Below are positions 4,689 through 54,910 of a stretch of DNA of 64,000 nt, piece after piece; position 1 is the stretch's first letter, and each line of letters opens with the position of its first letter. The position numbers and the translations under genes were made by a program. Below the pieces are notes generated by a model. The model was given only the letters and a program-made list of their open reading frames with translations, had not been told where the DNA came from and made no database searches. The stretch is taken from the NCBI GenBank assembly GCA_947631135.1, contig CANRKE010000001.1, positions 8,475-72,474 of the forward strand, written 5' to 3'. Source of the stretch: an uncultured Bacilli bacterium. Its GTDB lineage: Bacteria; Bacillota_I; Bacilli_A; RF39; UBA660.

Positions 4689-5438
4689 TCACTCTCCTGT
4701 TAAAATTTCATATCCATCTTTAGTAACAACAACTGTATGTTCATAATGAGCAGATGGTTTATGATCCATCGTTATTACTGTCCAATCATTATCACTAACA
4801 TAGACATTTCTTCTTCCTAAATTAAGCATAGGTTCAACTGCAATTACCATTCCTTCCTTTAGAACTGGTCCTTTATAGTTTGAAACAAAGTTAGGAACTT
4901 CAGGATCTTCATGTACATCAGTACCAACACCATGTCCTACTAATTCTCTTACTATACTTAAATTATATGAATTTGCACAATCTTCTATTGCTTTTGAAAT
5001 ATCACAAATTCTATTACCTGGTTTTATAGCTGATAATCCTTTATATAATGATTCTTCTGTACCTTTCATAAGTCTTTTAATATCATCACTTGGATTATCT
5101 CCAATATAATATGTCCAGGCAGAATCTCCATGATATCCCTTATAACATGCACCAATATCAATCGATACAATATCACCATCTTTTAACTTTCGATTATCTG
5201 GTATTCCATGAACTACTTCATCATTGATAGATATACATAAAGTATTTGGAAATCCATCATAATTAAGAAACGATGGAGTAGCTCCTCTTTTTATTATGTA
5301 ATCATAAGCGAGTTTATCAAGCTCTAATGAGGAAATACCTGGTTTTAAATATTGTTGTAAGTATTTGTGAGTATCGTAAACTATTCTACCAGCAATTTTT
5401 AAAAGTTTTATTTCATCTGGTGATTTAATAGTAATCAT
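4689..5438 (-). CDS. map: Methionine aminopeptidase type I
   Basis: MetAP motifs. Start placed at [10 protein letters not shown] so that it no longer overlaps the adk stop at 5443. Confidence 0.9.
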
Positions 5439-5442
5439 TATA

Positions 5443-6096
5443 TCACTTCCCAATAATATTTTCAATTGATGAAAATACTTCTTTGATAGATTTTCCACTA
5501 TCTATTTTATATAATAAATTTTTATCTTTATAATATTTTATTAATGGTTCAGTAGTAGCAACGTAAGTATTATATCTTTCTTTGAAAGTTTCTTCATTAT
5601 CGTCGCTTCTTTGATATATTTCATTACCACAATCATCACAAATACCATCTGTTTTTGGTTTTAATGCATCTAAATATTTACTATATATTTTTCCACATTT
5701 TTTACATTGTAATCTACCACAAGATCTCTTCATTGCAGTATCATAATCAACATCTAGATGAAATACATAATTAATTTTGTTATTTAATTTTTCCAATATA
5801 TCATCTAATTTTTCTGCTTGATTTATATTTCTTGGAAATCCATCAAATATAAATCCTTCACCCTTATTATCCTTTTCTATTCTTTTTTCTAGTACAGGTA
5901 TTACTATTGAATCATCAACTAAAACACCTTTAACTTGCATATCATGAATTTTTTTACCTAACTCACTACCTGTTTTAACTTCTTCTCTAAGTAAATCACC
6001 TGTAGATATTTTATTCAAATGATATTTTTTTTCTAATAATTCTGCTTGGGTTCCTTTACCAGCAGCAGGAGCTGCAATAAAAATTATATTTTTCAT
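5443..6096 (-). CDS. adk: Adenylate kinase
   Basis: P-loop GKGTQ; zinc-finger-type LID (CKKCG...CDDCG). Confidence 0.95.
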   Translation of the reverse strand: MKNIIFIAAPAAGKGTQAELLEKKYHLNKISTGDLLREEVKTGSELGKKIHDMQVKGVLVDDSIVIPVLEKRIEKDNKGEGFIFDGFPRNINQAEKLDDILEKLNNKINYVFHLDVDYDTAMKRSCGRLQCKKCGKIYSKYLDALKPKTDGICDDCGNEIYQRSDDNEETFKERYNTYVATTEPLIKYYKDKNLLYKIDSGKSIKEVFSSIENIIGK

Positions 6097-7373
6097 TACG
6101 CTTTATGTCTCCTTACATATTTACTTTTTTTATAACTTCTACTTATTAGCGAACTTTCTAATTGCTTATATGTTTCAAGTGCAACACCAACTACGATTAA
6201 TAATCCTGTACCACCTATAGTAACACTTGATGGTAAACTAGATAAATTTGTAAATATTATTGGTAATCCAGCAATAATTGCTAGGAAAATTGCACCTGTA
6301 ACAGTTAATCTTGACAATACTTGTTTTATATACTTACATGTATCTTTTCCTGGTTTAATTCCTGGTATGTATCCACCATTTTTTTGTAAATCTTCTGATA
6401 ATTGTTCAGGGTTAATTTGTAAAAATACATAGAAATAAGCAAAGAACAATATCAAAAATATATATATTACAAAACCAACTGGTGTATTATAATTCAAATA
6501 TTTACTAACTATCAATGTAAATGTATCATTTTTAACAAATTGAGCTATTGTTGCAGGTATTGCTAATAAACTTGATGCAAATATTACTGGTATAACTCCA
6601 GCAGAGTTAAGTCTTAATGGCATATATGATCTTGCTGCACCCATTGCATTAGTTGATTTATTAGCATATTGAATAGGTAATCTTCTTTCAGCTTCTTGAA
6701 CGAATATTATACCAACAACAACTAGTAAATATATTGCAATGAATATTAAGTAAGATACACCACCTAAGAATATTTTTTGAACTGTATCAAATTTTACTAA
6801 TTCATTAAATGCTTCAATGAACATTGATGGAATACTTGCAAGAATACCAGCCATAATGATTAGTGATATACCATTACCAACTCCTTTTTGAGTTATTTGA
6901 TCACCTAACCATAATAGGAAAGCTGTTCCTGCTGTCATTATAGTTGCAACACGTAAATATTCTAGTGCACTTGCATTTTTTAAAAACGCAAACGAATATG
7001 CAATTCCTTGAATAAATGCCATTGCAATACCAACATATCTTGTAATTTGATTTAGTTTTTGTCTACCAGTATAACCTTGTTTTTTTAATTCCGTAAAATA
7101 TGGAATTATATCCATTGTTAATAACTCAATAATAATTGATGCAGTAATATATGGCATAACACCTAATGCAAATACTGAAAATTGTTTAAGTGCTCCACCA
7201 CCCATTGCATTGATAAGTTCTAGAAATCCTAAATTATCAGTTAAATTTTCTGTACCAGGTATACGTATTGTTGTACCAACTTTAAATACAAACAATATCG
7301 CTAATGTGAAAAGTAATCTTTTTCTTAAATCCTTATTAGAAGGTTTAAATATTTGCTTGATTTCAGCAAACAT
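6096..7373 (-). CDS. secY: Preprotein translocase subunit SecY
   Basis: 10-TM protein with SecY signature; synteny. Confidence 0.95.
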   Translation of the reverse strand: MFAEIKQIFKPSNKDLRKRLLFTLAILFVFKVGTTIRIPGTENLTDNLGFLELINAMGGGALKQFSVFALGVMPYITASIIIELLTMDIIPYFTELKKQGYTGRQKLNQITRYVGIAMAFIQGIAYSFAFLKNASALEYLRVATIMTAGTAFLLWLGDQITQKGVGNGISLIIMAGILASIPSMFIEAFNELVKFDTVQKIFLGGVSYLIFIAIYLLVVVGIIFVQEAERRLPIQYANKSTNAMGAARSYMPLRLNSAGVIPVIFASSLLAIPATIAQFVKNDTFTLIVSKYLNYNTPVGFVIYIFLILFFAYFYVFLQINPEQLSEDLQKNGGYIPGIKPGKDTCKYIKQVLSRLTVTGAIFLAIIAGLPIIFTNLSSLPSSVTIGGTGLLIVVGVALETYKQLESSLISRSYKKSKYVRRHKA

Positions 7374-8725: not shown

Positions 8726-9265
8726 CTATTTTGAAGCTTTCTTTCCTTCTTTACGACGGATTATTTCATTTTTGTATTTTATTCCTTTTCCTTTATAAGG
8801 TTCAGGTGGTCTTATTCCACGAATCTTAGCTGCATATTCACCAACTTCTTGTTTGTCAATACCACTAATTTTAATTTCAGTATTACTAATACCTTCAACT
8901 TTTAAACTGCTTGGTATTTCTATTTCAACAGGATGTGAGAAACCAGCTTTGATTGCTAATTTATTTCCTTTTAATTGGAAATTATAACCAACACCTACTA
9001 TTTCTAAAGATTTATCGAAACCTTTACTAACACCGTCTATCATATTTTTAATATTTGCATTAGTTGTACCATGCATTTGTTTAGAAGTTTTAATGTCATT
9101 TTTACGTGTTGTATAAACTTTTCCTTCTTCAACTTTAACATCTATACAATTTGCAATATTTAAACTAAGTTCACCTTTTGGACCTTTAACTGTTAATGTA
9201 TTATTTTCTATATTAACACTTACACCTTCAGGTATACTCAACACTCTATTTCCTATACGACTCAT
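8726..9265 (-). CDS. rplF: 50S ribosomal protein L6
   Basis: Homology and synteny. Confidence 0.95.
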   Translation of the reverse strand: MSRIGNRVLSIPEGVSVNIENNTLTVKGPKGELSLNIANCIDVKVEEGKVYTTRKNDIKTSKQMHGTTNANIKNMIDGVSKGFDKSLEIVGVGYNFQLKGNKLAIKAGFSHPVEIEIPSSLKVEGISNTEIKISGIDKQEVGEYAAKIRGIRPPEPYKGKGIKYKNEIIRRKEGKKASK

Positions 9266-9286
9266 CAGGACACCTCCTCTTATCGT

Positions 9287-9688
9287 CTACCATACGTAAG
9301 CCAGTACTTCTCCACCAATATTTTCTAAACGTGCTTGTTTATCAGTCATTATTCCTTTTGATGTAGATATTATAGCAATACCTAAACCATTTAAAACTCT
9401 TGGAATTTCATCTGATTTAACATATACACGTAGTCCTGGTTTAGAAATACGCTTAAGTCCAGTAATTACTCTTTCTTTATTTTGTCCATATTTAAGTGAT
9501 AATACTATCATGTCATCTTGATTATCGTGTTTTTCTATTTTGTAATCTATTATATATCCTTCTTCTTTAAGAATATTTGCAATTTGAATTTTTATTTTAG
9601 AAGCTGGAACTTCTACTTTTTTATATCGCATAATGTTTGCATTACGTATTCTTGTAAGCATATCTGCGATTGGATCAGTTAATACCAT
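9287..9688 (-). CDS. rpsH: 30S ribosomal protein S8
   Basis: Homology and synteny. Confidence 0.95.
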
Positions 9689-22636: not shown

Positions 22637-22696
22637 ATTAATATCTCTCCTTCCGCCATGACTAATTTTTAGCCATAGAAATTCCATTGCGTTACT

Positions 22697-47454: not shown

Positions 47455-48378
47455 CTAATAATATATAGTTATTGTATGATGAGTTTTACTTTTTTTATTT
47501 TTCTTTCCCATACACCATATTAAATTATCTAATTCAACAGAATTTATAATTATATTTTTTTCTTTTAGTTTTTCTTTTATTATTTCAATTACATATAACA
47601 TGTTAGCTCTAATTTCTATTTCCATTTCACTATCATGTAATAATTCTACTTCATTATCGACAATATCTTCTAATGCATCATTGTATACTAAAATACCATA
47701 ATCTCTGAATGTTCTTGGTATTCCATAATCAGCACACCCACTTAAGTTATTTACATTTTTTAAATTATTATTAATTGTTTCTGATAAATAATATAAATCA
47801 TTTGTAAGTAAAATTGCACGTTTATTAAAGTGTATTATTTTGTTTTTATAAAAAGACTTATCGTCAAAACTTTTAAAGTTATTTGTAATATAATTTAATA
47901 AATCTATATCTTTTTTTATAGAAAATATTTCATTATAAAAATTCTTATTATCATAAATATAATTTATTGTTTCAATAAAATTATTATATCTCTCATTTAA
48001 TAATGGAATTTTTCCTTCAACAGAATTAAAAATATTTTCAAATTGTTTTTTATTAATTGAATGTAAATATTCTATATTTAAAAATTTTGAATTACTTTCT
48101 ACTTTTTTTATTATTGAATAAAATAAAGCATTTGATCCACTCATAATTTCATGATTATATTCTATTTTCCATTTTGGTTTTTTCCAAAAGCAAAAATTCA
48201 TAGATTCTATTATAAAAGCTAGTAATATCCATTCTTTCTCACTTAATTTAATATTTAAATCTTTTGACCAATGTTTATAATTAATTTCTTTTAAGTTATT
48301 TATAAAGTCATTAATCTTATTATTATTGATTTTAACATATTTACTATTTTTTACTACATATTCAAATTCATCTTTCAT
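47455..48378 (-). CDS. Queuosine-salvage family protein (DUF2419/Qng1-like nucleotide N-glycosylase)
   Basis: CADYGIPRTFRDYGILVYN...SEMEIEIRANMLYVIE parallels the Qng1 signature ADYRVPQLLRALGALRYS...EEQEIRAASILAVE. N-terminal MNFCFWKK parallels LNFSFWSD. Confidence 0.6.
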   Translation of the reverse strand: MKDEFEYVVKNSKYVKINNNKINDFINNLKEINYKHWSKDLNIKLSEKEWILLAFIIESMNFCFWKKPKWKIEYNHEIMSGSNALFYSIIKKVESNSKFLNIEYLHSINKKQFENIFNSVEGKIPLLNERYNNFIETINYIYDNKNFYNEIFSIKKDIDLLNYITNNFKSFDDKSFYKNKIIHFNKRAILLTNDLYYLSETINNNLKNVNNLSGCADYGIPRTFRDYGILVYNDALEDIVDNEVELLHDSEMEIEIRANMLYVIEIIKEKLKEKNIIINSVELDNLIWCMGKKNKKSKTHHTITIYY

Positions 48379-48381
48379 ATA

Positions 48382-48936
48382 CTATTCCTTTCTTAATAAT
48401 AATTTTTTACTTTTTATAATATTGTTTATTTGTAACATTGTATTGTCAATAGAATTATTATTATCAACAATATAAATTTTATCATATTTTTTATATAATT
48501 GTAAATAAACATTGTTTTCATAATTATAAAAATCTTCATCAAAAATAAAATTATTTCTTTTTTGTAATCTTTCTTTAATTTTATATTTGCTTACTTTTAA
48601 ATATATAGTGTGTGGATGAAATATATTTATAGATAATATTTCATCGGCTGTTTCTTGTATTGTTTTTTTTAGTTGATAATTTAACCTAATTATAGTTGTA
48701 TAAAAGAATCTATCAAATATATAATTACCATTATTACATTCATATATATTGGCTTCATGTCCTATTATATAAATTTTTTTTTGTAACTCTGCATTACAAG
48801 TTCTGGCAAATTCTATATATTTTCTATACCAATCAGGGATAGATGTTCTAGGAATAATATTATATTCTTTTGATATATGTTTAATTAATGTTGATTTGCC
48901 AGATCCATTACTTCCTTCTAAAACTAATATTGACAT
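48382..48936 (-). CDS. P-loop nucleoside/nucleotide kinase (deoxynucleoside kinase / thymidylate kinase-like)
   Basis: Walker A VLEGSNGSGKSTL and a DRF(F)Y motif resembling the TMPK/dNK DR(Y/H) motif; 184 aa. Confidence 0.6.
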   Translation of the reverse strand: MSILVLEGSNGSGKSTLIKHISKEYNIIPRTSIPDWYRKYIEFARTCNAELQKKIYIIGHEANIYECNNGNYIFDRFFYTTIIRLNYQLKKTIQETADEILSINIFHPHTIYLKVSKYKIKERLQKRNNFIFDEDFYNYENNVYLQLYKKYDKIYIVDNNNSIDNTMLQINNIIKSKKLLLRKE

Positions 48937-50945
48937 TATATTTTCCTCATTACTAATACATGTTTTTGTGAATTATTTCTTGTTTTAATTTTAATATCAT
49001 GAGAATTTCCTATATCATAATCCCAAAAATTCCTATTTATGATTTCTAGTATATCATTTAATTCAAAAAACATTTGATTAAAATCATATTCTTTAATTAT
49101 TTGATTTTTATAATACAACTTATAAACTGTTTGTTCTTTCGCACTTTTAATATCATAATGACGTTGAATAACTAATTTATATTTTTCATCGACATATAAT
49201 TCTTTGTAAAAATTTGTATCCACACTTTCTCTCCATATTTTATTAAAACAGTCAAATACTATTATTCCGTTTTTTCTTAATATTAAATATATTTTATTTA
49301 ACATTTTACTTAATTCTTCTTTATTGCTATAGCAGTTATATAGGCTATATGCATAATCAAAAAGATAATTAAAATTGTGCATCAAAAAATCATCTTTTAT
49401 ATAAATAAAATCTTTTTCATTACCAATAAATTGATAAGATTCATAATCTATACCTACTATGTCATTATATCCTGCCTTTTTTAATTGATTTGCTATTCTT
49501 CCATATCCACACATGATGTCTAGTATTTTACCATTTTTATTTGAAAAGATTTTTGAAAGAAAATCTATTTCTTTTATAGTATAATTTGACATTGCTTTCG
49601 ATGTGTAATTGTGATATGTACCTAATTCATTAAAAGATTTTCTATCTTTGATTATATTAACGTTCATTTTTTCATTATCTAATTGATCAGCAAATAAACT
49701 ATTATTTATATTGTTTTGATTTAATATTATTTTAATTTCTTGCTTTTGAATCATACTTAAGAAATTAGTGCATATTATAATATAATTTTTAAATAATTCA
49801 TAGTTTAATTCATTTATATTTCTTTTTAAATCATTAATAATTGCAATTATTATACTTGTTTTACTGTAGTTTTCTATATTTGGTAAGTATAAATCATTTG
49901 TACCATAAACCACAATTTTATTAAGTATATTTTTTTCATTGTATTTTTGATTATTTGTATTCGATAATAGAATATATCCAAAAAATTTTCCTAATGCATC
50001 AATTAAATATTGTCTATCATATTCATTATTTTGCATTTTTAAAATATATTCTTTAAATATCATACTTTGCTTTTTATTATTGATAAAATTAAATGGATTA
50101 CTTTTGTAGGTAGTATTAAATTCTGTAGAAAGTATGATTGGAAGTTGAGATTTAACTGTTTTTTTTCTGCCATATATGATACCAAATTGATTAAATTCGT
50201 TTATTAGTTTTTCTTTTAAATATGATGGAAAATATATATTATTAGCAAATAAGTTCAAATAATTATTGGAATCTATATTATTTTTTTTAAAAAAATTATG
50301 AATATTAATTATAAATTCTTTCCTAAGTTTATTAAATTCAAGTCTATCATAATTTATATTAAAACCTTTTAATATTGAATCAGCTAATATTCCTAGATAT
50401 ATATTGTCATTTTTTTCAATATGTGAAAAATCTAGATGAATATAATGATCTTTACCATCTTCTGTTATAAACGATGGCGAAATAAAGTTAACTGTAATTC
50501 TTGAATTGTCAGTTCCGTAAGCAAAAAATAAGCTAGTATTTCTATCATGTGATATTTTTTTAATTATTATTTCTTTATTTAATTCACAAATATTTTTAAT
50601 AAGTTTTTTAGATACTAGATTTATAGTGCTTTTTATACTATTATATATACCATTTAGTCTTATAATATCTATTTCCCCAGCAAATAATAATTTTAGATCC
50701 AAGTCAAGATATTTTTTTTCAAAATTAAAGTTAGTTGTTTTTAAAAATTCTATTATTTTTTCTATATCTTTTTGATTTTCATATATAATCATGAAATCAA
50801 AATCTCCAATTTTATTTTTATTATTATACTTTATAGAATCGTAAGCAAATCCTCCACCTGTTACAAATGATGCATTGATATTATTATCTTTTAACAATAA
50901 ATTAATTTCTTTACAAAAATTACTTCCTACATTTCTGTAATTCAT
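48936..50945 (-). CDS. Two-domain protein: N-terminal polymerase-beta-type nucleotidyltransferase-like domain fused to a C-terminal class I SAM-dependent methyltransferase
   Basis: N-terminus VTGGGFAYDSIKYNNKNKIGDFDFMII (hG[GS]-x(n)-DhDh). C-terminus ILDIMCGYGR (motif I), VGIDYES (post-I acidic), LRKNGIIVFD (motif III). Confidence 0.55.
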   Translation of the reverse strand: MNYRNVGSNFCKEINLLLKDNNINASFVTGGGFAYDSIKYNNKNKIGDFDFMIIYENQKDIEKIIEFLKTTNFNFEKKYLDLDLKLLFAGEIDIIRLNGIYNSIKSTINLVSKKLIKNICELNKEIIIKKISHDRNTSLFFAYGTDNSRITVNFISPSFITEDGKDHYIHLDFSHIEKNDNIYLGILADSILKGFNINYDRLEFNKLRKEFIINIHNFFKKNNIDSNNYLNLFANNIYFPSYLKEKLINEFNQFGIIYGRKKTVKSQLPIILSTEFNTTYKSNPFNFINNKKQSMIFKEYILKMQNNEYDRQYLIDALGKFFGYILLSNTNNQKYNEKNILNKIVVYGTNDLYLPNIENYSKTSIIIAIINDLKRNINELNYELFKNYIIICTNFLSMIQKQEIKIILNQNNINNSLFADQLDNEKMNVNIIKDRKSFNELGTYHNYTSKAMSNYTIKEIDFLSKIFSNKNGKILDIMCGYGRIANQLKKAGYNDIVGIDYESYQFIGNEKDFIYIKDDFLMHNFNYLFDYAYSLYNCYSNKEELSKMLNKIYLILRKNGIIVFDCFNKIWRESVDTNFYKELYVDEKYKLVIQRHYDIKSAKEQTVYKLYYKNQIIKEYDFNQMFFELNDILEIINRNFWDYDIGNSHDIKIKTRNNSQKHVLVMRKI

Positions 50946-50958
50946 ATTTTTTCCTCCT

Positions 50959-51798
50959 TTATTTTCTTAAATACATAGTACATACGTTATTTTTTGTCAT
51001 TACTTTACTCCTAGAATACATAGTTTCCATTGGTAAATAAACACCATTTTCTTGTTTTTTAATATAATCGGAAATAATATTATATATGGTGTATAGTTTA
51101 TCATTTCTTTTTTTTATTTCTTTATTGGACCAATTCATTTTCTTATAAAACTCAATATTATTTTTATAAAAATTATAATAATTTTTGTCTTTATTTAAAT
51201 TATCAGAAATATATCCAATAGTATATTTTGAATCATTATAAATATCAGATAAAAATATTATTTCTGTTTCATCAAAATTTTTGGATGCTTTTTCTTTAAA
51301 TTTTTTTTCATGAGTATTCAATTCTTTTTTCCAATTAGGATTTAGGTCATAATTAGTATTTTCTAAAAATATATTAGCTAAAGTTATTTTAAAGTTTACT
51401 GGTATCTTTTCTTGTTGAAATAAATTTTTTATTTCTTTTAGTATATTTAATCGTTTAGAATTATTTTCACCTATATAATCTTTATATCCAGTATTCGTAT
51501 ATCCTGGACAAAAAATTGCATTAAAGTTGATAATAGAATTATTAATTATATAATATATAAAAGATGTTAAATCTTTTTTAGTATTATACTTATAATCAAA
51601 GTAACAATTTAATTTATTAATTATGTTCCATAAATAATTTATGTTGTTTATATCTACATTTATTAATTGTTTTTCAATAGAGGCATCACCGTTTTTTATT
51701 AATCCAGTAATTATAGATTTAATTATTTTTGTGTTTTCAGCAGTATGTACTATATTTAATTTATTAAATATATAATTATAATCAAACATTTTAATCAC
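50959..51798 (-). CDS. Hypothetical protein (279 aa), operon member
   Basis: Intact ORF tightly packed between the flanking genes; no family recognised. Confidence 0.5.
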   Translation of the reverse strand: MIKMFDYNYIFNKLNIVHTAENTKIIKSIITGLIKNGDASIEKQLINVDINNINYLWNIINKLNCYFDYKYNTKKDLTSFIYYIINNSIINFNAIFCPGYTNTGYKDYIGENNSKRLNILKEIKNLFQQEKIPVNFKITLANIFLENTNYDLNPNWKKELNTHEKKFKEKASKNFDETEIIFLSDIYNDSKYTIGYISDNLNKDKNYYNFYKNNIEFYKKMNWSNKEIKKRNDKLYTIYNIISDYIKKQENGVYLPMETMYSRSKVMTKNNVCTMYLRK

Positions 51799-51865
51799 AA
51801 ATTCCTTTCATTTTATTCAAAATATACATAATTATAAAAAGCATTTATTTTTTCAACATAATTTT

Positions 51866-52669
51866 CTACTTTAGTCTTTTATCTAACTTTTTTTCATTAT
51901 TAATGATACCATGTGCATATACATTATGTTCATGAATTGACTCATAATTAATAAGTTCTGCTTCTATTTTATTATTATATTTTTCAGCAACAGCTAAAAG
52001 TAAATCTCTTATTAAATCTTCTGAAAATTTTGGATTTTCATAAGCTAATTCTGTAATATATTTTTCATCTGTTCTTTTAACTGTACTATATACATTAGAA
52101 CTAAATGACTTTTCCATTATATTGATAATTTCTTCTAAATTAATTTTTTCATAATTCTCGTGTAATATTATTGTTGCCTTACATTTTTGATTATGTGCCC
52201 CGTATTTCGATATGTCTTTGGAACAAGGACATAACATTGTTCCTATAATAGAAATTGATAAACTTTTTTTATTAATATCATTTATTTTGGAATTGTTTAT
52301 TTTCAAATTAACAGTAAAATAAGAATTTTTCTTTGAAATTGGTGAAATTCTTTTTAAAATAATATCAAAATCCATAGTTAATGACATATTGTTAGTTTCC
52401 GTTCTTTTTATTGTAGTATTTATAATTTCATTAATATCTTCAAGTGATATAATTTTATCACACAAATAGTCATTTAATACTTCAATAATTCTGCTTAAAT
52501 GTGCTCCACGAGAATTTTTTTCAAGTGAAACGTTACTAGATATATTACAGATTGAATGATACAATTTATTATTTATAGATAGTGTAATAGGTAATTTGTA
52601 ATCACAAATTCCAATATTACTTATAAAAATATTTCTATCATCTTTTTCATTTTGCAAATCTTTAAGCAT
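51866..52669 (-). CDS. GTP cyclohydrolase FolE2/MptA family (GTP cyclohydrolase I type 2)
   Basis: Matches three FolE2 signatures: RGAHLSR (G-x-H-M/L-SR), MLCPCSKDISKYGAHNQK (CPCSKEIS...GAHNQR) and C-terminal ESIHEHNVYA (ESIH-x-H-x-A-x-A). Confidence 0.7.
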   Translation of the reverse strand: MLKDLQNEKDDRNIFISNIGICDYKLPITLSINNKLYHSICNISSNVSLEKNSRGAHLSRIIEVLNDYLCDKIISLEDINEIINTTIKRTETNNMSLTMDFDIILKRISPISKKNSYFTVNLKINNSKINDINKKSLSISIIGTMLCPCSKDISKYGAHNQKCKATIILHENYEKINLEEIINIMEKSFSSNVYSTVKRTDEKYITELAYENPKFSEDLIRDLLLAVAEKYNNKIEAELINYESIHEHNVYAHGIINNEKKLDKRLK

Positions 52670-53519
52670 TTTTTAACACCTCTTCTATTTTTAATATATT
52701 CTCCTTATTTTTTAAAGCATCTATCCATTTTAAACTATTGTTCTCTATATAATCTCTATTTAAAATTTTCTTTTCATATAAATATACATCTTTCAACAAA
52801 TTATATATAATACAATATTTAAATAATAAATGTATATTGTTTTTTTCTTCTTTTTCAAGTTTAATATTATTATTAAAGTAATTTGAAATAAATACTTTTA
52901 TATTATCAATATCATAATTTTTATTTTTTATAAAAAACCACATAATTACTCTTATTATATCAATAAGTCTATTTCCAATATAAACGTTACCAAAATCAAT
53001 TAGAAATATTTTATTATTATTAATTATAATATTTTCCTTTTTTATATCTGAATGAACGATACATTTTGAAAGAGCATCAAGATTTATGTTTTGAATTTCT
53101 TTAAATATTTTATTTATAAAATTTAAATCTTTAGATAAATATTTAGATCTTATTGCTACACTATAATATTGGTTTAATTTGTTTAGTGATTCTTCATTTT
53201 CTTTATGTTTTTTTATTTTTTCATTAAGAGGTATAGAGTGAAGTTTTTTCAATAATAATGCCAAATTTTTAAAAAATGATTTATCAAAAGTATTAGGATT
53301 ATTTCCATATATATATTTTAATATCATTACATTTTTTGAATTAAAAATAAATTTTGAAATTAATTTAGGACTCTCAAAATCATATTTTTTAAGATATTTT
53401 AAAATCTTAATTTCAAAGCTATTATCAATTTCACTCATTCTAATTATATATTTTTGTTTTCTTATTGTAAAAATGTATACATCATTTATGTTATTATTTT
53501 TAATTTTTTCTAAATTCAC
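52662..53519 (-). CDS. Protein-kinase-like fold phosphotransferase (APH/choline kinase/CotS family small-molecule kinase)
   Basis: Brenner motif VHSDIKKEN (HxDxxxxN) and LIDFGN (DFG-like). 8-nt overlap with the downstream FolE2 gene. Confidence 0.6.
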   Translation of the reverse strand: MNLEKIKNNNINDVYIFTIRKQKYIIRMSEIDNSFEIKILKYLKKYDFESPKLISKFIFNSKNVMILKYIYGNNPNTFDKSFFKNLALLLKKLHSIPLNEKIKKHKENEESLNKLNQYYSVAIRSKYLSKDLNFINKIFKEIQNINLDALSKCIVHSDIKKENIIINNNKIFLIDFGNVYIGNRLIDIIRVIMWFFIKNKNYDIDNIKVFISNYFNNNIKLEKEEKNNIHLLFKYCIIYNLLKDVYLYEKKILNRDYIENNSLKWIDALKNKENILKIEEVLKNA

Positions 53520-53575
53520 ATATATTCCCCCTTTTTCTAAAACTTTAGTATATTATTCCAAGAAATCGCTAATTA

Positions 53576-53604
53576 TTCTATTACTTTTACAATTAAATGT
53601 CAAT
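53576..53604 (-). promoter_or_regulatory. Candidate promoter of the six-gene island operon
   Basis: Minus strand TTGACA-17 nt-TAGAAT, ~50 nt upstream of the first gene's AGGGGG RBS. Confidence 0.35.
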
Positions 53605-53708
53605 AGAATACATATTTTTTATAAATTTTTCAGGATAAATTCATGAAATAAATTTATTTGTTATAAATAATTACTAAAAACGTACATAGAAAAACATCTA
53701 TAAAATAT

Positions 53709-53737
53709 TTGCTTTTATGTTACAAATATTGTATAAT
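53709..53737 (+). promoter_or_regulatory. Candidate promoter for the 192-aa gene
   Basis: TTGCTT-17 nt-TATAAT. Confidence 0.35.
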
Positions 53738-53898
53738 AAGTGCTGAAAGGAAAAATTTGTTAGAAAAATAATATTTTAATTAAAAATAAATCGTTCAGTA
53801 AATGATTTATTTAAGATTAGTGTGATGTAATTGATAAAATATAAATTTCATTTTTTAATAATTTTAATATAGTAAAAGTATTAGGAGGTTATAATTTT

Positions 53899-54477
53899 AT
53901 GAAAAAAATAGATTTAGATGAATTCGATGATTCAAATATGTTTGCTAATGATACTATTGAAAATTTAAAAAAAGATTGTAAGAACGGTTTTCAATTATTA
54001 AAAATAATAATCGATGGAAAGCCAAAAAATATTAATCCTCTAACAGAAATACCAGAACCTCAAATGAGATTGTTTGGCTTTTCTGATGCTTTTAATAGTG
54101 TATATTTTGAAACTGAAGAAGAATTAATTGAATGGGCAAAAGAACATAATAGAGATTCTGATAGTATACGCGTAATGGATTATTTAGGAACAGTTGCTGG
54201 TCGTAGTGATGTAATTAGAGTAAAATATCCAGGTGGAAAAGATTTATTATTTACTCATTGTGATGAAGATGGATATGGAATATACAATTATAACAGAAGC
54301 AATTATAGAGGCGAATTTATATGGGAATATAGTTACGGAAGCATTAGTGATATGTACAAAGAATTTAGAGATAGAGGTATTGTGTTTGAAAATGATATCT
54401 ATGCAAAAATTGAAGAAAGTAAAAAAGAATTATTTAAAAAGATTAAAGAAATAAATAAAAAACATTTTAACAAATAA
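53899..54477 (+). CDS. Hypothetical protein (192 aa) adjacent to oriC
   Basis: Intact ORF with GGAGG RBS; no recognisable family. Confidence 0.5.
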   Translation: MKKIDLDEFDDSNMFANDTIENLKKDCKNGFQLLKIIIDGKPKNINPLTEIPEPQMRLFGFSDAFNSVYFETEEELIEWAKEHNRDSDSIRVMDYLGTVAGRSDVIRVKYPGGKDLLFTHCDEDGYGIYNYNRSNYRGEFIWEYSYGSISDMYKEFRDRGIVFENDIYAKIEESKKELFKKIKEINKKHFNK

Positions 54478-54619
54478 TAATTCTTAAATTAATTATAAGA
54501 TGCTTAACTTAAAAAGTATCTTTTTTATTTGATTAATATTTAATTTATAAAATAGTTAATATTACTTTTCCCAGGAAATAAATTTTACTATATGGGGAAA
54601 TAATAATATTTTCCATAAA

Positions 54620-54825
54620 AAATATTTCCCACAGGTATGTGGAAAAAATTGTGGAAAACTAACCCTTATAAAATATGGATAAACTTTAGTTTTCCACAGT
54701 TATCCACAGGCATGTGCAAAAAAAGTTAACAAGTGTGTAAACTTTTTCCACAGGATTGTGCATAACTTATATTTCCCAGTAAAAAATAAGATTTTTTCCT
54801 GTTGAAAACTTTGTGGAAAAAAATT
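54620..54825. promoter_or_regulatory. oriC DnaA-box cluster upstream of dnaA
   Basis: TTATCCACA at 54700-54708. TTTTCCACA variants on either strand at 54638-54646, 54650-54658, 54690-54698, 54744-54752 and 54812-54820. TTTCCCACA at 54625-54633. Confidence 0.7.
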
Positions 54826-54910
54826 TTATTAAATTTGCCAATATATCTTTTTTTTTGTCGATATTTAGTTTAAAATAATTAGTAAGAGATGTAGTAAGGG
54901 AGGTGGGTAT

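Follow-up and report, generated by a model that had tools for sequence, protein, structure and literature searches.

The window, by which we mean the whole 64,000-nucleotide stretch of DNA from an uncultured Bacilli bacterium that was analysed, carries a six-gene operon in the order APH-type kinase, FolE2, an orphan 279-aa protein (U279), a fusion protein, a dTMP-kinase-like kinase and a Qng1-like N-glycosidase; all coordinates given below lie on the reverse strand. Adjacent genes overlap or are separated by gaps of 1-67 nt, and the operon has one good promoter and no internal terminator. This promoter, a sigma-70 candidate by consensus match only (TTGACA-17-TAGAAT, 53575..53603, 11/12), lies ~55 nt 5' of the first gene; no Rfam element was found in the operon leader. 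The cassette is located between rpmH-rnpA and dnaA, with a GC content of 0.18-0.19 as compared with 0.22-0.26.

The first gene (52662..53519, 285 aa) encodes an APH-family small-molecule kinase (Pfam APH, 2.5e-14) and overlaps by 8 nt the second (51866..52669, 267 aa), which encodes FolE2, or GTP cyclohydrolase IB (Pfam GCHY-1, 7e-65). The latter scores 192 bits with NCBIfam FolE2, short of the equivalog cut-off of 215, and has the CPCSK...GAHNQ motif. U279, the product of gene 3 (50959..51798), probably has its true start at 51789, which gives a protein of 276 aa; it has 86 homologs, shows the motifs FCPGYT..GYK, FLEN, NPNW, RNDKL and LPMExMYxR, and has no PDB or Pfam match, a search with the whole family included, nor does any of the 86 homologs carry a Pfam domain on its U279-homologous part. 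Downstream of the fusion gene, gene 5 (48382..48936, 184 aa) encodes a dTMP-kinase-like P-loop (d)NMP kinase (Pfam Thymidylate_kin, 3e-7; NCBIfam dTMP kinase, 2.8e-8, below cut-off) in which a P-loop, GSNGSGKST, and a DRF motif can be seen. Gene 6 (47455..48378) encodes a Qng1-like (DUF2419/Q_salvage) nucleotide N-glycosidase (Pfam Q_salvage, 3.7e-45; StQng1 in the PDB, 1e-32).

The fusion gene itself, gene 4 of the operon (48936..50945), is a complete open reading frame of 669 codons in the ORF list, in which a nucleotidyltransferase-like module precedes a SAM methyltransferase. An AGGAGG Shine-Dalgarno sequence lies 8 nt 5' of its ATG at 50945, and its stop codon shares bases with the ATG of gene 5 (TAATG), which suggests translational coupling of the two genes. 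Among 49 homologs, ~45 are full length; these have 662-687 aa, are collinear from M1 to the C-terminus and show 38-80% identity. The AlphaFold model of the full-length protein has a pLDDT of 92 and a pTM of 0.87, and that of residues 1-435 by themselves a pLDDT of 90.8. An earlier note, made from the DNA sequence, had proposed a nucleotidyltransferase-like N-terminus joined to a class I SAM methyltransferase, and AlphaFold and Foldseek analysis bears this out for the methyltransferase and, with weak E-values, for the N-terminus. The protein is very probably a real two-domain enzyme, with both predicted active sites conserved in its sequence.

Residues ~436-669 (48939..49640) were assigned to a SAM-dependent methyltransferase of class I, capped by a beta-sheet, on the basis of Foldseek and phmmer matches, near-threshold Pfam matches and motifs. 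Motif I reads ILD476-IMC-G480-Y-G482-R, with D476, G480 and G482 invariant, and the acidic post-I residue D500 (VGID500) is likewise invariant, in line with the motifs noted earlier; together with the Rossmann-like fold, motif I and the acidic end of strand 2 are those of class I. The top Foldseek match in the PDB is CypM (E 9e-13, TM on target 0.72), and further matches include CcbJ, PsmD, TylM1/DesVI, KedS8, CalS10 and GNMT/GSMT (TM on target 0.6-0.73); E-values against small-molecule methyltransferases range from 1e-12 to 1e-8, and phmmer matched the domain to 1wzn. Pfam scores fall just short of their cut-offs (Methyltransf_25, 26.2 vs 27 bits; Methyltransf_23, 24.8 vs 27; Methyltransf_11, 21.1 vs 21.2), and two relatives, P0139 and P0140, exceed the Pfam methyltransferase cut-off at 33.4 and 31 bits. 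By its predicted structure, this domain belongs to the small-molecule type of class I SAM methyltransferases, represented by TylM1, CypM, CcbJ and GNMT. TylM1, DesVI, CalS10 and KedS8 are NDP-aminosugar N-methyltransferases, and several members of the TylM1/CcbJ/CypM/GNMT group act on nucleotide-linked substrates. These enzymes share the Rossmann core and beta cap with the window protein, but identity is 10-18%, the window protein has an unusual CGYGR in motif I, and none of them is fused to a nucleotidyltransferase module. Four cap residues (R572, R595, R656 and K661) are invariant in the sequences compared; such basic residues would suit an anionic, phosphate-bearing substrate, a weak inference.

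The first ~125 residues (50571..50945) resemble a pol-beta-type nucleotidyltransferase core in the models, in Foldseek matches and in their pattern of invariant residues. According to the models, the core consists of helix 3-20, strand 25-28, a GGG loop at 30-32, strand 48-55 carrying D48 and D50, and strands 94-101 and 104-112, the last of these carrying K105. The motif reads V-T-G30-G31-G32-F-A-Y ... G47-D48-F-D50-F-M-I: G30-G31-G32, between strand 25-28 and helix 31-34, forms the hG[GS] loop of the pol-beta fold, and D48-F-D50-F, which opens strand 48-55, forms the [DE]h[DE]h metal pair, both Asp being invariant in all clades. The GG...DFDF signature reported earlier is therefore present; G31, G32, D48 and D50 are unchanged in 24 relatives with identity down to 15%, and G30 is conserved in at least 90% of the same relatives. 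The core residues invariant in all clades are G31, G32, Y35, S37, Y40, D48, D50 and K105. One candidate for the third carboxylate is D93, just where strand 94-101 begins; it is conserved without exception in the fused clade only, its equivalent being Ser in stand-alone relatives and Glu or Gln in a kinase-fused clade; D83 (conserved at 90% or more) and D189 (invariant) are alternative candidates.

We found no match to residues 1-435 by sequence or HMM search in Pfam, NCBIfam or the PDB, and a superfamily profile of the core compared with PDB, Pfam and NCBIfam HMMs found no known nucleotidyltransferase. Foldseek matches of the core in the PDB, over ~106-144 columns, are to Tam41, SpoT/Rel, Cid1/URT1, CD-NTases, GrpB and ANT(2'')/ANT(4'), and those in BFVD are to CCA/tRNA nucleotidyltransferases, a poly(A) polymerase head and RelA/SpoT. 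In both structure libraries, the confident local matches and nearly all of the named ones are thus nucleotidyltransferases of the pol-beta superfamily, although E-values (best 0.011 in the PDB and 0.0055 in BFVD; range 0.005-1) are individually below statistical significance and TM on query is ~0.2, as just ~120 of 435 residues align. An N-terminus of some other fold, named earlier as the finding that would count against a fusion, is accordingly not what these two libraries indicate, weak as the E-values are. The top PDB match of the N-terminal model, Tam41 (7ecd, 6ig4; E 0.011, probability 1.0, 119 columns), the mitochondrial and Firmicutes CDP-diacylglycerol synthase, likewise combines a nucleotidyltransferase core of the pol-beta type with an additional domain behind it, and it transfers an NMP onto a phosphomonoester to give an NDP-linked product, the type of reaction that we propose for the module. 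However, the alignment is confined to the core of ~120 residues (TM on query 0.20), the sequences show no similarity, the extension of 310 aa in the window protein is unrelated as far as the tools tell, and Tam41 has neither a methyltransferase nor a FolE2 context. ANT(2'')/ANT(4') and GrpB-type proteins are small-molecule nucleotidyltransferase folds, and the pairing of the module with an APH-family kinase gene is a further likeness to them; but the matches are weak (E 0.4-1.3), the window locus has no resistance context, and the fusion protein, with its methyltransferase domain, greatly exceeds them in size.

Residues 126-435 (49641..50570) form a beta-rich and helical extension, recognized from a confident model, stand-alone homologs and conserved residues. 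A beta-rich subdomain (127-184) bears H133, R135-N-T and H167/H170/D172; the helix that follows carries the invariant G185...D189, and a helical domain (204-410) contains the motifs MQNNEYDRQY and VYGxND. Across the extension, D189 is invariant and G185, F233 and F239 are invariant or nearly so. Since stand-alone homologs span profile positions 1-~420, the extension belongs to one module with the core, and it is presumably the acceptor-binding part of that module. An unrecognised middle region, as described in the earlier note, thus stands in that it has no family match, but it covers ~310 aa (~126-435) rather than ~250 and is not a separate set of domains. Residues 1-435 are a single autonomous module, hitherto undescribed, and we consider it likely that this N-terminal module is a catalytic one of the pol-beta nucleotidyltransferase superfamily.

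A profile of residues 1-435 searched against 1.84 billion proteins returned only 39 cluster representatives, among them stand-alone module proteins of 390-479 aa, whose alignments span positions 1-~420 of the profile. Distant lineages have the module as a gene by itself, and in three of the four such lineages with enough flanking DNA there is a separate homologous methyltransferase gene. At three loci (L012, L024 and L017) this gene lies inside the module operon, which answers the earlier suggestion to look for the two activities as split genes; the split methyltransferases match the fusion domain at BLAST E-values of 3e-6 and 1e-6 and have a CGxGR motif I and the cap residues in common with it. 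No methyltransferase was found within 10 kb of the module at L022, which points to an independent function of the module. A third clade (L018/L019) joins the module to a C-terminal half that carries an APH/choline-kinase-like catalytic loop (GDNHAGNILV...IDYEYAG), whose Pfam APH matches (E 1e-3 and 8e-3) are below threshold; in the window operon APH is a separate gene.

Two types of module operon can be distinguished. FolE2 lies at most two genes from the module both in Type A (the window, L001-L010 and L020) and in Type B (L012, L013, L022/L023 and L024), so that the FolE2-module pairing recurs in differing genomic surroundings, whereas there is no FolE2 near the module at the stand-alone locus L017 or in the kinase-fused clade (L018/L019). 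FolE2 and a nucleotide kinase adjoin the module in most lineages, and module operons contain a dTMP-kinase-like or NDK-like gene plus a NUDIX or Qng1-like hydrolase. The Type A set comprises an APH kinase, syntenic throughout, an NMP kinase (gene 5 of the window, syntenic also in L020), U279 and a Qng1-like or NUDIX hydrolase; a U279 homolog lies immediately 5' of the fusion gene in L020 and L021. The Type B set comprises NDK, the orphan U380 and NUDIX, sometimes with genes for a PEP-mutase-like protein (motif ENKx5NS) and an Ldh_2 dehydrogenase. The flanks of Type A cassettes are mostly housekeeping genes, and these cassettes persist at 38-80% identity across a lineage whose genomes appear small and AT-rich. 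The fusion gene serves as the signature of a very rare operon whose starting enzyme is a GTP cyclohydrolase, and the description 'nucleoside-metabolism operon' given to it earlier is imprecise: the constant partner is FolE2, and the remaining genes code for kinases, a nucleotide hydrolase and an orphan protein.

Given the weak fold E-values, the lack of a sequence profile tying the N-terminus to known nucleotidyltransferases and a third carboxylate that varies between clades, the protein could be a plain methyltransferase whose N-terminal region looks like a nucleotidyltransferase but serves, without catalysis, as a scaffold or to bind the substrate. We regard this as highly improbable, as the GG, DxD, K105 and D189 residues are unchanged at only 15-20% identity, a pattern typical of active sites and not of scaffolds, and as the module occurs as a stand-alone gene without a methyltransferase domain and, at L022, with no methyltransferase seen within 10 kb. 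Were both domains active on nucleic acid, the protein could be a terminal nucleotidyltransferase coupled to a methyltransferase, comparable to the Pnkp/Hen1 repair enzymes or to tailing enzymes; the nucleic-acid end suggested earlier as a possible target would be of this kind. The presence of Cid1/URT1 uridylyltransferases, CCA-adding enzymes and poly(A) polymerase heads among the fold matches and of a P-loop kinase as neighbour is in keeping with such a role, but the long CCA-enzyme alignments are poor (rmsd ~20 A, probability <0.15), the methyltransferase matches small-molecule N- and C-methyltransferases and not RNA 2'-O or base enzymes, there is no RNA-binding domain and no ligase or phosphatase partner, and the conserved partners (FolE2, APH kinase, NDK, NUDIX and Qng1-like protein) are small-molecule enzymes. 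End modification of the Hen1 type is therefore disfavoured, and we consider it very improbable.

A role in nucleotide signalling or phage defence would have a CD-NTase- or Rel-like module make a signal or toxic nucleotide from GTP or a derivative, with the methyltransferase, kinases and hydrolases tailoring or detoxifying it. CD-NTases, cGAS-like receptors and Rel/SpoT synthetases are indeed among the fold matches (CdnD and CdnG at E 0.17-1), the cassette occupies varied genomic sites, its window copy, of lower GC, being inserted between rpmH-rnpA and dnaA, and defence-type genes occur nearby: an MmeI-like restriction-modification enzyme at L012 and large AAA_11/AAA_12/MTES_1575 helicases at L022 and L024, all beside Type B operons, and MazEF and patatin after the cassette at L001. 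The dTMP-kinase-like protein also weakly matches two PADLOC candidate-defence kinases (6e-9 and 8e-9). Nevertheless, PADLOC models match none of the module (fused or stand-alone), U279, U380 and FolE2 except through generic domains, the conserved set has no recognisable effector (nuclease, pore, TIR, SIR2, etc.), Type A cassettes are kept among housekeeping genes in apparently small genomes, and the methyltransferase is of a metabolite-tailoring type; this explanation is improbable. Salvage of queuosine or another 7-deazaguanine, in which a kinase makes Q-5'-monophosphate, the Qng1-like enzyme frees queuine and the fusion nucleotidylates and methylates a 7-deazaguanine nucleoside or nucleotide, draws on gene 6, which, unlike the fusion, is a clear homolog of the queuosine-5'-monophosphate N-glycosidase Qng1/QNG1. 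FolE opens de novo 7-deazaguanine synthesis as its first enzyme, and the Qng1-like protein keeps its catalytic, ribose-binding and guanine-face residues intact (K199, D207, D231, Y232, N72, F75, D298, W302 and the C-terminal Tyr). The substrate of Qng1 is a 5'-monophosphate supplied by a kinase yet to be identified (PMC9881137), and the operon has two kinases. In every cassette copy, however, three of the four aromatics of the queuine pocket (W48, Y93, W94 and W299) give way to small polar or acidic residues (Y93S, W94N/E and W299N/S), and the gene is dispensable, being exchanged for NUDIX in L020, undetected in L010 and missing from every Type B operon. As, moreover, no QueC, QueD, QueE, TGT or preQ1 riboswitch adjoins the cassette, queuosine salvage is unlikely. 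The N-glycosidic bond on which a Qng1-like enzyme acts is absent in pterins, so that a guanine-type nucleotide fits this enzyme better than does a pterin, a point against the pathway proposed below.

The reading that we prefer, and put forward tentatively, is that the fusion may be a bifunctional small-molecule enzyme central to a co-transcribed six-gene operon starting from GTP. That it acts on a small molecule derived from FolE2 activity is rather probable; FolE2 presence could also mean merely shared regulation or GTP use. In the pathway that we envisage, FolE2 would convert GTP to dihydroneopterin triphosphate or a close relative, and the APH-type kinase and/or a pyrophosphatase would set the phosphorylation state of the intermediate. 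By analogy with Tam41, CofC and Fom1, the module would then move an NMP from an NTP to a phosphate or hydroxyl, and the fused methyltransferase would methylate the nucleotide-tagged product; this order, with methylation second, is plausible but, as a specific sequence, less likely than not. The dTMP-kinase-like kinase, or NDK elsewhere, would recycle the released NMP or supply the NTP, and the terminal hydrolase (Qng1-like here, NUDIX in other lineages) would remove or degrade the nucleotide part. Such use of a nucleotide handle has a functional analogy in Fom1/Fom3/FomD (fosfomycin) and CofC/CofD (F420), where a phosph(on)ate receives an NMP, methylation or transfer of the tagged molecule follows and the nucleotide comes off later; the PEP-mutase-like and Ldh_2 genes of Type B operons add to this likeness. 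There is, however, no homology to the window fusion: the nucleotidyltransferases Fom1 and CofC differ from it in fold, and Fom3 belongs to the radical-SAM enzymes. The orphans U279 (window) and U380 (Type B) have no assignable role, which implies that key chemistry is missing from the model.

Known routes onward from the product of GTP cyclohydrolase I are few: they lead to folate, to biopterin and further pterins, to queuosine and the other 7-deazapurines, and to methanopterin. In two operon layouts that differ greatly, FolE2 is coupled to an unannotated enzyme of nucleotidyltransferase fold, a dedicated methyltransferase, nucleotide kinases, a nucleotide hydrolase and two orphan families, and this conserved gene set offers a concrete lead, open to test, towards a new metabolite or cofactor derived from GTP. 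The fusion gene is probably a marker of an uncharacterised pathway to a GTP-derived, methylated metabolite; more specifically, it is possible that the FolE2-nucleotidyltransferase-methyltransferase sets encode an undescribed route from GTP to a methylated, nucleotide-conjugated metabolite or cofactor of pterin or guanine type. The analysis gives a first structural and functional handle on a protein family that has no Pfam or NCBIfam model, brings to light a Qng1 subfamily with a remodelled specificity pocket, and offers a candidate partner-kinase context for Qng1-like enzymes. If the proposed pathway exists, residues 1-435 would represent a catalytic family new to the nucleotidyltransferase fold and devoted to the chemistry of this pathway. 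Carriers include uncultured Bacilli of the human and animal gut whose genomes are apparently small and AT-rich, in which an unused 6-kb operon is unlikely to persist, and the gut Bacilli that bear the cassette would then have retained its product, which would make this molecule important to their physiology.

The open reading frame at 48936-50945 (minus strand) encodes a protein of 669 residues, is preceded by an AGGAGG Shine-Dalgarno sequence 8 nt upstream of its ATG, and ends in a TAA stop codon that shares bases with the start codon (ATG) of the gene that follows. Among 5.8 billion proteins only 49 relatives turned up; about 45 of them are collinear proteins of 662-687 aa with 38-80% identity. 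Almost all of the relatives derive from metagenomes of the gut or from MAGs labelled Bacilli, Firmicutes, Erysipelotrichaceae, 'Tenericutes' or Clostridium sp. CAG:417, and no protein of the family has a product name in its source record. Two partial homologs (P0044 and P0049) bear precomputed Pfam domains, DNA methylase (PF00145) or helicase (PF00271); as their contigs are short or single, they may owe this to chimeric assembly and not to true fusion. The earlier note had read the protein as a nucleotidyltransferase-like domain fused to a class I methyltransferase. In the homolog alignment the motifs on which it relied are invariant at both the N-terminus (G30-G32...D48-x-D50) and the C-terminus (D476/G480/G482 and D500); the fusion is real, has two conserved catalytic domains, and its architecture was essentially correctly read.

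A full-length AlphaFold model built with a 28-sequence alignment reached a pLDDT of 92 and a pTM of 0.87, and its Foldseek matches in the PDB come mostly from the C-terminal ~235 residues. This domain matches CypM, CcbJ, PsmD/SgMT, TylM1/DesVI, KedS8, CalS10 and glycine/sarcosine N-methyltransferases (E 1e-12 to 1e-8, TM-score on target 0.6-0.73), which points to a small-molecule methyltransferase with a beta-sheet cap. Residues 1-435 modelled alone gave a pLDDT of 90.8. The best Foldseek match of the N-terminal model in the PDB (E 0.011) is below significance; its confident local matches, over ~106-144 columns, are to Tam41, SpoT/Rel synthetase, Cid1/URT1, CD-NTases, NF90, GrpB and ANT(2'')/ANT(4'), all of them pol-beta-superfamily nucleotidyltransferases, and where the alignments are long and of low probability (a cGAS-like receptor, CCA-adding enzymes, FAM46) the partners are again nucleotidyltransferases. 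A viral structure library agrees, with matches to CCA/tRNA nucleotidyltransferases, poly(A) polymerase head domains and RelA/SpoT proteins. In the predicted core (residues 1-~125) the GGG loop follows strand 1, and D48 and D50 lie on strand 2, as in the nucleotidyltransferase fold. Given these matches and this topology, we accept such a fold as likely for the modelled N-terminus, and do so with good confidence.

No sequence profile in the Pfam and PDB searches linked the core to a known nucleotidyltransferase. When the whole protein was scanned with Pfam and NCBIfam, residues 1-435 had no match, and for 12 family members the Pfam hits at E up to 10 were only scattered noise. Searches of PDB sequences yielded nothing meaningful, whether the query was residues 1-435, a 12-sequence profile or a superfamily profile of the core built from 18 sequences. 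Candidates for a third carboxylate are D93 (invariant in the fused clade only), D83 (at least 90% conserved) and D189 (invariant across all clades). Residues ~126-435, modelled as a beta-rich subdomain and a helical domain, resemble nothing known.

Searching 1.84 billion cluster representatives with a profile of residues 1-435 retrieved 39 proteins in three groups: methyltransferase fusions with identity down to 35% (P0139, P0140); stand-alone proteins that span the entire module in 390-479 aa (E 1e-33 to 1e-15); and three long proteins of 714-917 aa with an APH/choline-kinase-like catalytic loop in the C-terminal half. The N-terminal 435 residues are thus an autonomous, extremely rare module. 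Ten residues (G31, G32, Y35, S37, Y40, D48, D50, K105, D189 and F239) are invariant in all three groups, a sequence pattern that points to an active site and not a scaffold. In the third clade (L018 6521-9274; P0166, P0168, P0170), in which the module is joined to the kinase-like half, Pfam APH matches are sub-threshold and pairwise BLAST of the window APH protein against P0168 and P0170 gave nothing significant, so that the 'APH-like' reading rests on those matches and the catalytic-loop motif only. P0166 and P0170 have apparent signal or lipoprotein-type leaders, and the neighbouring genes in this clade encode a HIT-family protein at L018 and an NDK at L014; FolE2 is not nearby.

In the window, six closely spaced genes lie on one strand (47455-53519, minus strand) behind one good promoter-like site, with the fusion in fourth place: an APH-family kinase, FolE2 (GTP cyclohydrolase IB), the orphan protein U279, the fusion, a dTMP-kinase-like kinase and a Qng1-like N-glycosidase. 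From this operon layout the fusion is predicted to be co-transcribed with FolE2. No riboswitch or leader was found 5' of the operon by Rfam, at the gathering threshold window-wide or at E<=1 over 53400-54000; the one Rfam match at gathering score in the window is an L31-Firmicutes ribosomal protein leader at 22647-22678 (minus strand, 38.4 bits). The order of the first five genes is kept in 10 of 10 related loci with the fused gene, in differing genomic surroundings, and the Qng1-like gene follows in nine, all but L010, where no copy was detected. A more distant relative with 35% identity (L020) keeps the APH, FolE2, U279-homolog, fusion and kinase genes and ends in a NUDIX gene, not Qng1. In L006, a gene for a ComB-type 2-phosphosulfolactate phosphatase (8854-9558; Pfam 1.3e-45) starts 4 nt past the Qng1-like gene; it is missing from the corresponding position in the window.

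U279 (50959-51798, minus strand; the NCBI protein P0050 begins three codons later, giving 276 aa) lies directly upstream of the fusion in every case, including L020 (35% identity) and L021. Searched alone or as a family, it matches nothing in Pfam, NCBIfam or the PDB, and none of its 86 homologs has a Pfam domain on the homologous part; the motifs FCPGY..GYK, FLEN, RNDxL and LPxExMYxR are invariant. Comparison by hhalign found no link among U279, U380 (the orphan protein of loci with a stand-alone module), the APH kinase and the kinase-like half of the third-clade proteins.

Loci with a stand-alone module show the same association in other arrangements. An eight-gene operon encoding Ldh_2, a PEP-mutase-like protein, a methyltransferase, FolE2, NDK, the module, U380 and a NUDIX protein is kept in two unrelated genomic contexts (L012 3964-10968 and L024 5887-12910). 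Its PEP-mutase-like protein carries ENKx5NS, one residue away from the PepM signature, EDKx5NS, and the operon gives a hint that the product of that lineage contains a phosphonate or hydroxy-acid moiety. L022/L023 have FolE2, an NDK-like protein, the module, U380 and NUDIX; short contigs carry FolE2-module (L013) or NDK-module-U380 (L015/L016); and L017 has the module, U380 and a methyltransferase (5385-6791) with an N-terminal NDK-like domain of ~220 aa (ILIKPEG..., NFIHAPDN), a further fusion joining members of one gene set. The split methyltransferases are homologous to the C-terminal domain in the window, with which they share an unusual CGxGR motif I and cap residues. The two halves therefore do occur as separate genes, as the earlier note had proposed to check. 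Across distant lineages the recurrent associates of the module are FolE2, a kinase and a hydrolase that handle nucleotides and, in most lineages, a methyltransferase.

The Qng1-like protein (47455-48378, minus strand) raises the possibility that the cassette serves queuosine salvage. Its homology to Qng1 is genuine, and all the StQng1 residues for catalysis and for binding ribose and guanine are kept; however, the queuine-pocket aromatics are replaced in every cassette copy (Y93 by S, W94 by N or E, W299 by N or S) and the gene set can do without Qng1, and we consider this reading improbable. To judge from these residues, the cassette proteins form a subfamily of their own, whose substrate is probably another guanine-type nucleotide.

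A defence or signalling system would fit the genomic setting in part. The window is strongly AT-rich (GC 0.18-0.32) and includes the replication origin region; the cassette and a divergent ORF (47455-54477) lie between rpmH-rnpA, encoded with mnmE, jag and yidC on the minus strand, and the dnaA/oriC region, with GC of 0.18-0.19 against 0.22-0.26 in the flanks. As rnpA is near none of the ten related loci, the cassette occupies different sites in different genomes. The divergent ORF (53899-54477, plus strand, 192 aa), between the cassette promoter and the origin region, has no Pfam or NCBIfam match, and several DnaA-box-like repeats of the TGTGGATAA / TTTTCCACA type at ~54500-54900, upstream of dnaA (start 54911, plus strand), presumably mark oriC. 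Variable location and low GC, together with some neighbours (an MmeI-like restriction-modification enzyme, large helicases, MazEF, patatin), would suit defence; against this, flanks of loci with the fused gene are mostly housekeeping genes and neither a defence model nor an effector was found, PADLOC returning only generic kinase, methyltransferase and NUDIX matches for the window cassette and one operon with a stand-alone module. This explanation, too, has little probability. Beside the small-molecule methyltransferase matches and the active-site pattern of the module, it is unlikely that the fusion is an RNA-end modifying enzyme or a plain methyltransferase with a scaffold domain.

We moderately favour the view that the fusion is a bifunctional enzyme and works in a small-molecule pathway linked to FolE2. 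In one such scheme, FolE2 would make dihydroneopterin triphosphate, or a related compound, from GTP, and a kinase or pyrophosphatase would fix the phosphate state of this intermediate. The module would move an NMP onto this intermediate or a co-substrate, in the manner of Tam41, CofC and Fom1, which transfer NMP to phospho(no)-esters; the methyltransferase would then act on the nucleotide-tagged molecule, the terminal hydrolase would take the nucleotide off, and the kinases would return NMP to NTP. The fused architecture suggests that product may be channelled between the two sites. Some of the nearest methyltransferase relatives use NDP-linked substrates, an analogy that would slightly favour the scheme, and the invariant basic cap residues R572, R595, R656 and K661 could suit a phosphate-bearing substrate. 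Against it, two orphan proteins have no place in the scheme, and the Qng1-like enzyme cuts an N-glycosidic bond, which pterins lack; this specific order, nucleotidylation of a FolE2-derived intermediate followed by methylation, is accordingly tentative.

The fold classes of the fusion are already known. Pfam, NCBIfam, PADLOC, the PDB and the searched literature contain no description of the 435-residue module, of a methyltransferase fused to it, of its coupling to FolE2 or of the accompanying orphan families; full-text searches gave no account of the gene set, and there is a real chance that the pathway behind the fusion is new as well. Beyond what the earlier note had remarked on, the chief interest is a conserved, extremely rare gene set built on FolE2 and the module.
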